From the NCBI RefSeq assembly GCF_013315695.1, contig NZ_CP054353.1: DNA of 64,000 bases. One strand, given 5' to 3'. Positions within the stretch are counted from its first letter, which is position 1. Each line of letters starts with the position of its first letter. Source of the DNA: Escherichia coli (GTDB lineage: Bacteria > Pseudomonadota > Gammaproteobacteria > Enterobacterales > Enterobacteriaceae). Below, in pieces: positions 23,701-29,700 of the stretch. Made by a program: the position numbers.

Positions 23701-26700
23701 TCTTCATCTTTTCACGCAACCAGCTTTCCAGGGATTTCAACAGCGGTTTCGTTTTTCGCTGACGTTCAGCAAGCCGCTGCTCTGCCGGCATTCCCCTTAT
23801 ATCCGCCTCTATGGCGTACAACTGACCGATCTGCTCCAGGGCTTCTTCCGTCAGTGCTGACGGGATGCGGACGTGCACATCGTGGATCTTTCGGCGGGCA
23901 TGAGCCCAGCAGGCAGCTTCCGTTATCCCACCATTGCGATACAGCTCGTTGAACCCGGCGTACGCATCCGCTTGCAGCACACCGCTGAAGCAAGCAAGAT
24001 GAGTCTGCGGATGGATGCCTTTTCTGTCCGGGCTGTAAGCGAACCACACTGCAGGTGCCAACGCTGACCCGGCATTGCGGTCATCACGAACATACGCCCA
24101 CAACCGCCCGGTCTTCGTCTTCTTATTACCCGGCAGCAGTACCTGGACCGGGGTATCATCGGCATGGAGTTTGCAGTCAGTCATGACATAGCCATGAAGC
24201 GCCTCTTCCAGCGGAGACAGCAGCCGGCAGCATGCATCCACCCAGCCCGACAGCAGTGAACGGCTCAGCTCCACACCTTGCCGGCCGTATATTTCTGACT
24301 GGCGATACAGCGGGGTGTGCTCTGCATACTTCGAGGTCAGCACGCGGGCCAGCAGCCCCGGTCCGGCGATACCCCGCTCGATGGGCCGCGAAGGTGCAGG
24401 TGCCTGCACGATGGCATCGCACTGAGTACAGGCATGTTTTTCCCGTACCGTCCGGATAACCCGGAAGGCGCTACGCATCAACTCCAGCTGTTCGGCGGTA
24501 TCCTCGCCCAGATAGCTCAGTGAACCGCCGCAGTTCGGGCAGCACGGCGCCGCAGGCAACAGTCGCTTTTCGTCACGGGGTAGTGATTCAGGGAACGGCT
24601 TACGGGTGCGGGTCTGACGCAACGGACGCTGTACTGCCGGGTCATACACCCTACCAGTCAGCGTATCGCTCTCTTTCTGAAGCCGGTTCAGATCGGCTTC
24701 CATTTGTGCGATACGGCGGGAGACTTTTTCGGAACGACTGCCGAAGTTCATCCGGCGGAGTTTATCCAGCTGCGCCTGCAGATGGTCTATTTCGCGCTCC
24801 CGGTTGCTCAGCTTTTCCTGCAGGGCGTGGATCAGCGCTTCCTGTTCGGCCAGGCGCTGTTTCAGCAGGAAGATGTCGTCAGAAGAGATGTCGTTCATAA
24901 GCCCGTATTTTACCGGGCTTATTCTGTGACAACCAGGATAAAGAGATTTACAGCATGGTCAGGGAGGTCAGCAGCCGCTTGGGCTGTCGCCAGTCGATAC
25001 CTTCCAGCAGCATCGCCAGCTGCGCCTGCGTAAGGAACACTTTGCCATCACGGGCTGACGGCCAGGCGAAGCGCCCACGCTCCAGCCGTTTGGTCAGGAG
25101 GCACAGTCCGTCACCGGTGGACCACAGCAGTTTAACCTGACTGCCGCTGCGGCCCCGGAAAATGAAAACATGGCCGGACATGGGATCGTCTTTCAGCGCC
25201 GTTTGTACTTTCGCAGCCAGGCCGTTGAAGCCATTTCTCATATCGGTGATACCGGCAACCAGCCAAATTTTGGTCCCGGAAGGTAACGGGATCATCGCTT
25301 CAGTTCCTGTATCAGCAGAGTCAGGAGCTTTTCGCTGACATTGCCATTGAAGCGGAGCGTCCCGTGCCGGAACGTTACCTCACAGCTGATACTGAGGGTT
25401 TCCGGGTCCTCTGCGAGCGATTCTGGCTGTTCGGCAGCTGCATCGAGAGTCACAGGAAGTAGCTGGGGGCTCTCTGAAGAAGGTAATAGCAGCTTTCCCT
25501 CGCGCCATTGTTGTCGCCATTTGAACAACAGATTGGCGTTAATGCCATTTTCAAGAGCAAGTTTTGAGATGGATATCCCGGGTTCACAGGAGGCAGCAAC
25601 GAGCAGCTGTTTAAATTCGGGAGGATAATTAGGGCAGCCTTTTCGCCTGCCGGGAGTCACATTTTTCTGCATATCTGACACTTTGGTTCCCACTACTTAT
25701 TTGGTGGACACCACTTTGTCTAATTCGTCAGATTCTGACCAGACGGTTCAGGCTGTACGCTTACCACTATTTTATCCCTGTTGAATTTGGTTAAGCCGGT
25801 GCAGACGCGCCGGGAAACGCACACCTGAACCGGCACAATAAAATACAATACAACCCCCCTGTTACTGGAGATACGAATGGAATGACGAGGCAGCCTGTCA
25901 GTCACAGGGGGCTGTTGGCATAAAATCAATGGAAAGGCCACCAACACCGGAATTAAGCTCCACAGTCCCCGCACTGGCAATCCATTCCCGGGAAAGGCAT
26001 CACCGCAAACTGCTCCGGAGGCAACCATTACAGCCTCTGTAACGGATTATCAGCCCTGGCATCTTCCGACGGCACCTCCTGCCGCCCCCACGCCCTGCTG
26101 TATACCCCGGTACCGCAGCGTGGGCAGCACTTTTCCCCCTCATAATCTTCGTCACACATCACACAAAACCACTTTCTCACCTTCACCGTATAATCCGGAA
26201 CCGTCATGCCCTGCAGATGCAAACGACGGGCCTCTTTCTCTGCCGGGTCAAGCCAGGTACATCGCAGCAGGATTTTTTCAGCGACAGTCATCTGGTCATG
26301 TTCAAACCACGGTGGTTGTCCGTCATTGCCCCGCTGAAGTGTTAACGGGCATCCACAGGACACACAGCACAAAACGTCCTGTCGGTTGTGCTTCGCAGCT
26401 TCTTTCGCCGTAACAAAATGGCCTTTGCTGTCATTCGCCATATAACAGTTCAGAATTCGCATATTTCCTCCTGAGTTGTCCGGGGAATACTGAATCCTCC
26501 GGTCTGGCAGTGTGTGCAGTACTGCTCCCCATAATAATCGTGGTGACATTGTCTGCAGTGCCAGCTGGCTTTACGCACCACGGGTAAGGCATCCGGTACG
26601 AATTGCTGCAGACGTTTAATCAACTGTATTTCTCTGCGCTCCGGCCTGACATAAGGGCACTGTTGACCGTGCTCTGTCAGCCTGTCGTCAGTGTGTTCAA

Positions 26701-29700
26701 ACCAGGGAAGTTCAGTGTCGTATTGCGGATGGTATCTGAGTGCACTGCCACACAAGTGGCAGGTGTAGTGAGCATAAGGTGCGGCCTGTGCAGTACGGGC
26801 GCCCGTCAGACGTCCGTTGCCATCAAGAGCGATAAAGGATTTTGCGTACATAGTCATATTCCTTAGCCGCCAGACGACACGCAGGCAACAGCCGTCCCGG
26901 TACGGGCAGCGTGGTCAGGGTGTGAATGGCGGTTCAGTTAAAATCTGGACTGGAGTTTGGGTAAAGCAGGCTGGTTGCTGTTACAGCACTGTGGTTGTCA
27001 CACAATGGAACACTGACGTAAAAAACAGTCAGTGGGCGAGTGGATACATCGTTGCCGCCAGACAACAACCCATACTTTTGGTTTGCCGGATATTGGCGCG
27101 CCAGTCGTGCTCAACTCCGGCTACAGCCAAAATTGCGCTCACCGGTGCAGTGAGCTTTGGTATACTCCTTCGCCAGATAGTCAGCACGTTCCAGCACTTG
27201 CTGAAAGCCGGTGTCATCATTACGCGCCAGCCACACCGCCGGCCAGGCCGGAAAATGCACCAGCGTGGCATGGCACCCGACATCCACTCCCAGGGCACTG
27301 CACCACGCCTGTTTAATCATCCCGGCCAGAGACTCCGGAGCGCGGTAATCACCGGCACGACACCAGGTATCCCGGTTGACCAGCAGCATCAGGTGATAGT
27401 GTTTTTTACCTTTGCACTCCCCAAACTCCCGGGCCCAGACGTAATGCAGGGTTGTGGGATGCACGCGTTTACCTTCCCGATGCTTACGTTTCTGGTAAGC
27501 GTCGATTCGGGCTTTCAGGGCATTGATGAAGCGGGATATCACAGCTGCGTCCGTTGCTGCCGGTACATCCGGGAAACGCAGGTCAACCCGCAATGCCGTC
27601 AGGCGGGGATGAACATTCAGTGCGTGCCGCACCGTCTCACGAATACGTTGCTGCCAGAAGGGGTTGTATTTGTAGGTCATGGTTAAATCTCCGTATGGTT
27701 CATACGGAATAGCCACGTCGTAAAAAATGCGCAGAGTCCCTGAAGTGACCTCCGGCAGGACACTGTCTCAGGCACTCTGTGATAACCCTAACGGTCGTCT
27801 CCGGACTGACGGTTGAATTTTCAGCGTTGTTTTTTTAATGTAAAAAATCGGTTACGGGTAAGGCTGTGAGGAGGGAGTGATGGTGATACGCAAAAAGAAG
27901 TGCAGGGACTGTGGAAACGCGATTACTCATAATACAGTGTGTTGCCCGTATTGTGGTTCTGTCGACCCCTTCGGCTACTACCGAAATACAGACCGTATCG
28001 TTACCATACTGCTGGCGCTGATTATTGTGGTCCTGCTGACTACTGTCAGCGTCAGTGTGTGTATACTGTGTAGCTGGTGAGATAACGGTTCATGTATCCC
28101 CTGAGCTGACAGTGTACCGTGTATATTAAGCGTAACCGACAGGTTCTCCTTCATACCATATTAAATTTTTCCAGGTATTGCCGCTGCCTTATTTCGTCCC
28201 ATAAAGGAAAACTCATCTGGGTTTCTGACAAATACGCGAAACTCACAGCCCCTCAATATCAACCACACGTTGTAAGCCGGTAATACCTGAAAATCAGCCT
28301 ATTACCGCCCACGCCTCCGGCACCATTCCCTTTTGATTTCGAATTCTTTGTTGTCGCTATACCGCTTAATGTTCCCGGTCCTCCGGTGCAGATAACACCG
28401 GACTTATCGTAGCGCTGGCTAAAAGTTCAGGTGACCAGAAGGAAGCAGGAACACGATCGTAAAGTTTGCGGTCAGTTCCGTCAGTCGGTGGGCAACCGCA
28501 GAGTTACGGGCTTCCAGGTCCACAGGAGTGAGTCTATAACGCGTGTGAAAAATCATTTTTTCTGGCGTTGACAGAACACATTACAGGCTGCCACTTACCC
28601 GGTGTCCCGCAATACAGCCTTAGTGTTCCGTTATCGGGGATCCGGACGCACCGCAACAACCGGGGAAGTATTTCTGGTTTAGAGCTGTGTCAAGAGGGAT
28701 TTCTCAGCCCCTCACTCACCGGCTCAGTCTCAGAGCAGGAGCATTAATACGCTCAGTTCATGTCTTATACAGGAATTGGCACAGGGGGAGCTGGCGTGTC
28801 ACTGCTGATTTTACGCATCAGCGTTCATGTATTTGCACTCTGATACAGAATGCTTCACAGCGCTCTGTTACCGGAGAGATTTACTCTCTTAGCTTACTCT
28901 GGCAAATCCTTTACGTTACTCTCTGATGACTTCTTATATTTATAATACCAATCAGACAGCCTTATCCCATCGGTGATATCAGTCTCCTCCTCGCCAGGAA
29001 CGGGCTGACTCACTGTAACCACCTCCGAAAACAACTCTGCAATTATCAGAACGCTAGTTTTCCCCTTGTCTCACGAAAGTCCTCCCTCCTTTATCGCGCG
29101 TGCGTGCGGAAGCATCTTTTCGCAACAACCACCCGGGATTCCGCTACGGCTCTGCCATCGCAATCCCCCCGTTTATCTCCGGACAGCCACATTCCCGATT
29201 ATTTTTTACGTTTCTCCCCGGTTGTTATGCCAGTGAAGGTGGCGCGCTGTTTTCATGACCACACCGGCTGGTTTAACAACATCCGGAGGAACATTCTCAT
29301 GGCTACCCCTGTTTCGCTGATGGATGACCAGATGGTCGACATGGCGTTTATCACTCAACTTACCGGCTTAACCGATAAGTGGTTTTACAAACTCATCAAA
29401 GATGGGGGCTTTCCTGCCCCCATCAAAATGGAGCGCAGCTCCCGCTGGCTGAAAAGTGAAGTGGAAGCCTGGCTGCAGGCGCGTATTGCACAGTCCCGTC
29501 CGTAATTTCTGACCGTTATCCGTTCACCCGCAGCAGACGTAATCTCCGGCCTGCCGGCGGCATTCTGCTGCCTGTTATATCCCCGTGAGGAATATGAAAA
29601 TGAAACAACAGTATCAGACCCGCTACGAATGGCTCCACGAAAGCTACCAGAAATGGCTGACCGGCTTCACCCGGCACGCCGTATCCTGGGGCGTGTGTCA

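Follow-up and report, generated by a model that had tools for sequence, protein, structure and literature searches.

Two adjacent, overlapping minus-strand genes in the 64,000-nucleotide stretch of Escherichia coli DNA analysed here (contig NZ_CP054353.1; hereafter 'the window') encode paralogous two-domain proteins, which we call ZnA and ZnB. They are backbone genes, and not cargo, of the P4-integrase-type (CP4/SRL-like) islands of Enterobacterales. Our analysis establishes their paralogy, their domain content, their synteny with a gene for a nickase-like protein of the Gp2/YfjJ type, and the selection that maintains them, and it points to a relation of their predicted fold to the N-terminal domain of CoiA. 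We tentatively favour the possibility that ZnA and ZnB are nucleic-acid-binding accessory factors which, once the island has been excised, support or regulate its processing by Gp2. The original prediction, made from the window alone, had placed two minus-strand open reading frames (ORFs) at positions 26028–26857, and both are indeed present in the ORF listing, in the sequence and in the translations:

26450..26857, minus strand: ZnA, the upstream paralog (ORF listing, translation; RefSeq WP_000270962)
26028..26462, minus strand: ZnB, the downstream paralog (ORF listing, translation; RefSeq WP_001221615)
26450..26472, minus strand: ZnA/ZnB junction, with AGGAGG, the ATG of ZnB and the TGA of ZnA read off the sequence

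An origin of the pair by duplication had likewise been proposed, and pairwise alignment bears this out: the proteins are 31% identical over 125 amino acids (BLASTP, E=2e-15), a similarity far above chance, and are paralogs. In a neighbour-joining tree of full-length family genes taken from 30 loci, (i) all upstream copies fall into one clade (clade A, with proteins starting MYAKSF...), and (ii) all downstream copies, together with all single-copy genes, fall into another (clade B, MR[ILVM]LKCY...). Across genera, A-type orthologs are 50–61% and B-type orthologs 42–45% identical, as against 21–29% for A versus B inside one locus. The order A-then-B is fixed across genera, and ratios of nonsynonymous to synonymous substitution rates (dN/dS) of 0.08–0.32 for both ZnA and ZnB indicate purifying selection.

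The arrangement of the two genes is conserved as well. That the downstream gene starts 13 nt inside the upstream one, behind an AGGAGG, can be read directly from the window sequence: the TGA of ZnA occupies 26452–26450, the ATG of ZnB 26462–26460, and AGGAGG, at 26472–26467, lies 4 nt 5' of that ATG. An overlap of 13 nt is kept in E. coli, Siccibacter, Superficieibacter, Yokenella, Mixta, Tenebrionibacter, an uncultured Enterobacteriaceae bacterium and a Klebsiella plasmid, and is accompanied by an upstream GGAGG or GAGG in 10 loci from several genera. Shorter overlaps are seen in Serratia oryzae and Pseudocitrobacter (10 nt each) and in a divergent E. coli island (4 nt), and GGAGG or GAGG is retained 6–9 nt upstream. 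Taken together, the split into A and B, the dN/dS values and the conserved overlap imply that the duplication is old, that both copies have been kept, and that the coupled arrangement itself is conserved. Translation of ZnB is probably coupled to the termination of ZnA through the conserved 13-nt overlap and the Shine-Dalgarno sequence inside the upstream gene.

ZnA likely starts at the second of two in-frame ATG codons (26851, MYAKSF, giving 133 aa) and not at the first (26857, MTMYAKS..., giving 135 aa), because three lines of evidence agree: the spacing from the Shine-Dalgarno sequence AAGGA is 8 nt to the second ATG and only 2 nt to the first, MYAKSF is the start of all ZnA orthologs in other genera, and it is also the RefSeq start. 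ZnB comprises 144 aa and begins MRILNCYMANDSK; the automatic ORF list gives a longer form of 173 aa from 26549, the conserved start being MRILNCY.

The feature is already known, since it is catalogued in Pfam, RefSeq and UniProt and identical copies are widespread, and the family to which it belongs is one without assigned function. RefSeq holds identical sequences under the names 'putative zinc ribbon protein' (WP_000270962, ZnA) and 'zinc-ribbon domain-containing protein' (WP_001221615, ZnB), and E. coli MSB1_4I matches the window at 100% identity over a 2.1-kb block that takes in the upstream gene. The original prediction described such proteins as uncharacterised, which holds for their function, to which the literature assigns none; it missed that the pair is catalogued, that the N-terminal domain appears CoiA_N-like, and that the pair belongs to a module with a Gp2/YfjJ gene. 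Many UniProt members (B7MMF4, B7LG76 and F4T7M7, among others) bear the name 'DNA-directed RNA polymerase, beta subunit/140 kD subunit', while 'Competence protein' is used for one of them; the polymerase name is without domain support and looks like a propagated misannotation.

Conservation of the pair outside this genome is extensive. Of the 5426 complete E. coli genomes searched, 2982 contain it (with a coverage of the pair query of at least 80%), in up to 7 places each and nearly always on the chromosome, and it also occurs in more than 10 other genera of Enterobacterales. The family is small and, among named genomes, confined to this order: when 1.84 billion cluster representatives were searched exhaustively with a profile, only 286 matches reached E≤1e-3, and a scan of one genome per species found 22 loci, all from Enterobacterales except two contigs of one Collinsella metagenome-assembled genome, which carry E. 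coli-like sequence and are probably contamination. Homologs occur in only 32 plasmid records.

The zinc-ribbon character expected for both proteins is confirmed by Pfam. ZnA matches DUF7828 (PF25165) at residues 4–89 (E=2.5e-31) and Zn_ribbon_11 (PF11682, formerly DUF3279) at residues 96–128 (E=8.6e-9), and ZnB matches the same families at residues 4–89 (E=9.3e-31) and 93–128 (E=1.7e-18). Among 39 diverse family members, all contain DUF7828 and 38 contain Zn_ribbon_11. In the alignment of these 39 members (ZnB numbering), one conserved cluster is N-terminal (C33, C36, F53, H55, C68) and another C-terminal (W98, C100, C103, G109, C113, C116). The putative metal ligands C33, C36, H55, C68, C100, C103, C113 and C116 are invariant or conserved to at least 90%, both window proteins included. 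The first four form a probable CCHC zinc site, and the last four (CxxC...CxxC) a probable and separate C-terminal Cys4 zinc ribbon. Here our results depart from the original prediction, in which paired CxxC motifs were placed around a WFEH element: the conserved residues form two separate clusters instead, and the His of the first lies inside WFEH.

A confident AlphaFold2 model of ZnB, built on the 39-sequence alignment (mean predicted local distance difference test score, pLDDT, 87.9), consists of a β-rich N-terminal domain with short helices, one long helix, and then a three-stranded ribbon; when ZnA and ZnB are modelled in one chain, joined by a linker, both halves fold alike. On the evidence of its predicted fold, the N-terminal domain appears CoiA_N-like, and the proteins would resemble a detached N-domain of CoiA plus a zinc ribbon. 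In agreement with this, matches to CoiA_N recur at the sequence level, though below threshold (9 of the 39 family members, best E=1.3e-3). ZnA and ZnB are not members of the CoiA family. In CoiA, the N-terminal zinc-finger domain CoiA_N (PF25164) is followed by a PD-(D/E)XK nuclease (PF06054), whereas ZnA and ZnB match no nuclease family in Pfam, carry a 35-residue Cys4 zinc ribbon in place of the nuclease, and are encoded in an island module and not in a competence regulon. Further searches returned little: nothing significant in NCBIfam and no significant match in PHROGs for either protein, and no match in the PDB when its sequences were searched with Gp2 or the profile of the family. The 50 listed matches of a Foldseek search against AFDB50 all belong to the family.

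Fusion proteins also occur in the family. In a small Serratia clade (P0252–P0256, and P0174 at positions 2797–4161 of locus L005), DUF7828 and Zn_ribbon_11 are fused to a conserved domain of ~310 aa, yielding proteins of 454–468 aa. No similarity of this domain was detected in Pfam or NCBIfam, and the idea that it might be Gp2-like was rejected, as searches with hidden Markov models found nothing and hhalign gave a probability of 6%. The one-off E. coli fusions P0002, P0003 and P0237 are deletion products and were rejected as a clue to function.

It is then of importance for the interpretation of ZnA and ZnB that their genes (hereafter, with all members of the family, 'Zn genes') belong to a recurrent module. 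Its first gene in the window is:

27111..27716, minus strand (RefSeq start 27680): Gp2/YfjJ-like gene, first of the same-strand cluster (Pfam)

The encoded protein, named 'inovirus Gp2 family', matches YagK_YfjJ_C (E=8e-48) and REP_ORF2-G2P (E=3e-5) in Pfam. H106-Y107-H108 and Y180-x-x-K183 do not vary among the 13 diverse Gp2 proteins of the first-copy type that were compared; we take these HYH and YxxK motifs to correspond to those (HUH and YxxK) known from single-strand nickases, and with an HUH motif and a downstream YxxK present, the protein is nickase-like and predicted to nick. The Zn genes are preceded by a same-strand Gp2/Rep-like gene in all E. coli variants that we inspected, in 4 of 4 metagenomic contexts of distant family members, in most species-level loci, in a divergent Klebsiella oxytoca locus and on the Klebsiella plasmid.

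AlpA and a second Gp2 copy are often part of the module, which in its fullest form reads Gp2, AlpA, (a ribbon-only ORF of 44 aa), ZnA, ZnB, a second Gp2 and DUF2913. The second Gp2 copy lies directly 3' of ZnB in other genera and on the Klebsiella plasmid (L013 7472–8044, L033 6493–7059, and loci L014, L020, L021, L029, L031 and L011). It is a clear paralog of the first (hhalign probability 98%, E=1e-13), and probably catalytically dead because both HYH and YxxK are lost. The 44-aa ORF between AlpA and ZnA (L013 6321–6455, with similar short matches in L014, L018, L023 and L031) comprises little beyond a Zn_ribbon_11-like CxxC...CxxC and would be a third, minimal paralog; the window is without it.

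Rolling-circle initiators and relaxases of the HUH type work with small accessory DNA-binding proteins, as gpII of Ff phages does with gpX and as relaxases do with their accessory proteins, and the enzymes of IS91 and of Helitrons have N-terminal zinc-binding regions. The island module is like such systems in that a Gp2/Rep_ORF2-G2P-like protein (HYH, YxxK) stands beside small putative nucleic-acid-binding proteins and a motif-less paralog. It is unlike them in that the zinc proteins are separate, duplicated polypeptides and have no sequence kinship with known accessory factors.

In the window, the following features lie 3' of ZnB:

25865..26027, minus strand: candidate decayed 5' remnant of the second Gp2 (Gp2b), 94% identical to a stretch of E. 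coli locus L002
23513..25693, minus strand: IS66-family element, tnpA/tnpB/tnpC, 3' of ZnB (ORF listing, RefSeq)

The IS66 insertion replaced whatever came after ZnB, and the second Gp2 of the window appears to have been lost through decay together with this insertion. A search of the window sequence with the Gp2b profile gave no significant match, and the remnant was rejected there for want of significance; only E. coli L002 shows a weak signal, in the form of two collinear, frame-shifted matches to the profile (E 0.006 and 0.08).

The CP4-type setting assumed in the original prediction is borne out, in that the window resembles, at about 1–23300 and 28000–45000, the SRL pathogenicity island of Shigella and islands of the CP4-44 type. 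In the SRL island of Shigella flexneri, orf34–41 have the same gene order as the window, namely phytase-like esterase, IS66, orf38 ('no similarity'), the YfjJ/Gp2 gene orf39, Hha and AlpA, and the fec locus is likewise common to both; the paper on that island has one unannotated ORF at the position of the pair and does not describe the zinc pair (PMC6980539). The order around the IS66 element of the window corresponds to orf35–39 of that island. The CP4-44 island of E. coli K-12 (yoeG/yoeH) shows neither homology to the pair nor a remnant of it. A preprint on islands of Pseudomonas likewise counts an inovirus Gp2-like protein, together with AlpA, among the likely core functions (10.1101/2024.08.29.610337).

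A further conserved feature of these loci is non-coding:

26867..26910, minus strand: near-invariant 44-nt non-coding element GCTGCCCGTACCGGGACGGCTGTTGCCTGCGTGTCGTCTGGCGG, just 5' of the Shine-Dalgarno sequence of ZnA

Each of 17 distinct loci (L001, a duplicate of the window, being left out of the count) has a single copy of this element, which lies on the strand of the genes and always 5' of the Zn genes and mostly has 0–3 mismatches. It spans more than 10 genera (for example L013 6533–6576 and L033 5534–5577), and between loci that share it the neighbouring genes have a synonymous divergence (dS) of 0.6–2.2. It is a constrained cis element and may be an operator, an RNA leader, or a nick, loading or origin site.

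According to the mechanism that we tentatively favour, ZnA and ZnB, which are read from a single transcript, would, maybe jointly, bind nucleic acid; they would then assist or control the Gp2-type nickase during processing of the excised island for replication or transfer, with the 44-nt element as a candidate site for ZnA and ZnB or for the nickase. Judged from sequence, both proteins may bind zinc and nucleic acid, may form an A–B complex, and may be linked to the activity of Gp2. Several observations weigh against this mechanism. (i) Synteny with Gp2 is linkage and not a common biochemical step, and 5 full-flank loci (L011, L023, L024, L026 and L029) showed no first-copy Gp2 5' of their Zn genes. 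(ii) At some loci a B-type gene stands alone, and an A–B complex is therefore not obligatory for the family. (iii) The AlphaFold2 model of ZnA and ZnB joined by a 30-residue linker has a predicted template modelling score (pTM) of 0.41 and shows no confident packing, although this is a weak test, its paired alignment (12 pairs) being shallow. (iv) With isoelectric points of 6.6–8.4, the proteins are near neutral, unlike many strongly basic DNA binders. (v) The literature searched for the DUF names, accessions and product names yielded no paper on function, and the N-terminal domain of CoiA is itself without assigned function (bioRxiv 10.1101/2024.02.06.579203).

The position of the 44-nt element, between the probable promoter region and the Shine-Dalgarno sequence of ZnA, would suit a different role, in which ZnA and ZnB regulate island genes at the transcriptional or translational level and have no direct part in the action of Gp2, for example by shutting down their own operon through binding to the 44-nt leader. 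Small zinc-ribbon proteins are often regulators; AlpA, both a regulator and an excisionase, stands in the same gene string in other genera; and RNAalifold predicts for the leader a hairpin and a small stem over the Shine-Dalgarno sequence, in which CCU pairs with its AGG. We nevertheless consider such a regulatory role rather unlikely. The predicted leader structure is unsupported, as the check yielded one compensatory pair only, a single-sequence z-score of −0.75 and no convincing covariation, and an Rfam search of the leader gave no match. Moreover, domain searches detected no helix-turn-helix or known regulator family in ZnA or ZnB, and regulation would leave unexplained why two diverged paralogs and a dead Gp2 are retained jointly.

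Returning to the proposed part of ZnA and ZnB in Gp2-type processing, it is tempting to speculate further, although we regard this larger claim as unlikely when taken as a whole, that ZnA, ZnB, the HUH-type Gp2/YfjJ protein and its putatively dead paralog constitute a hitherto undescribed apparatus by which CP4/SRL-type islands replicate or are mobilised, for which the 44-nt element would be the origin or loading site and in which the CoiA_N-like zinc proteins would recognise DNA. If true, the existence of such an apparatus would account for the propagation, once excised, of these 'cryptic prophage' islands, which are very common in E. coli. The genes are present in about half of the complete E. 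coli genomes, often in multiple copies, and reside in islands that also carry virulence, iron-uptake and toxin-antitoxin genes; the replication and movement of such islands after excision are poorly understood. The module of a nickase-like gene and two zinc proteins, together with the 44-nt site, provides a concrete entry point for experiments. What our analysis adds to the catalogued family is a likely relation of its fold to CoiA_N, the A/B orthology and the conservation of the overlap, the module of Gp2, ZnA, ZnB and a probably dead Gp2, and the 44-nt element with its near-invariant sequence.

Since the proteins appear to have a fold like that of the N-terminal domain of CoiA and are devoid of its catalytic domain, one might also envisage that they interfere with the host or with rival elements, i.e., that nuclease-less copies of CoiA_N block a nuclease or recombination step in anti-defence or exclusion. 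Antirestriction, RadC-like and toxin-antitoxin genes are indeed found in such islands, and in one metagenomic locus a Zn gene adjoins a block of defence genes. There (L008 4566–12215), the Zn gene is followed by a helix-turn-helix gene, a type I restriction-modification system, an SMC/AAA protein and an SduA_C (Shedu-like) gene; as the defence genes lie directly 3' of the Zn gene, the latter marks the border between core and defence cargo at this locus. Interference is, however, quite improbable in our view: the defence models of PADLOC-DB 2.0 gave no match for ZnA or Gp2 and only E=0.063 for ZnB, a tblastn search of 50,697 phage records found no homolog, and the position of the genes is fixed inside the Gp2/AlpA core and not in variable cargo, which argues for a backbone role. 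That the small, overlapping and co-transcribed genes form an addiction (toxin-antitoxin-like) pair stabilising the mobile element is hardly credible, given that the pair consists of paralogs predicted to fold alike, unlike known toxin-antitoxin pairs, that several loci retain a single copy, that many E. coli copies are truncated or fused, and that no toxin or antitoxin family is matched.

Apart from the module, the island genes of the window comprise lpxM/virK/capU, the fec iron-dicitrate operon, several IS fragments and the phytase-like esterase, and further YfjI, a YeeP-like GTPase, Ag43, antirestriction, RadC-like and YeeU/CbtA genes. Divergent from Gp2 lies a conserved ORF of 66 aa (27880–28080, plus strand; RefSeq WP_001297219, hypothetical), whose product has a CxxC...CxxC ribbon followed by a hydrophobic tail that is probably membrane-spanning, and which three further island variants of E. 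coli carry in the corresponding position.

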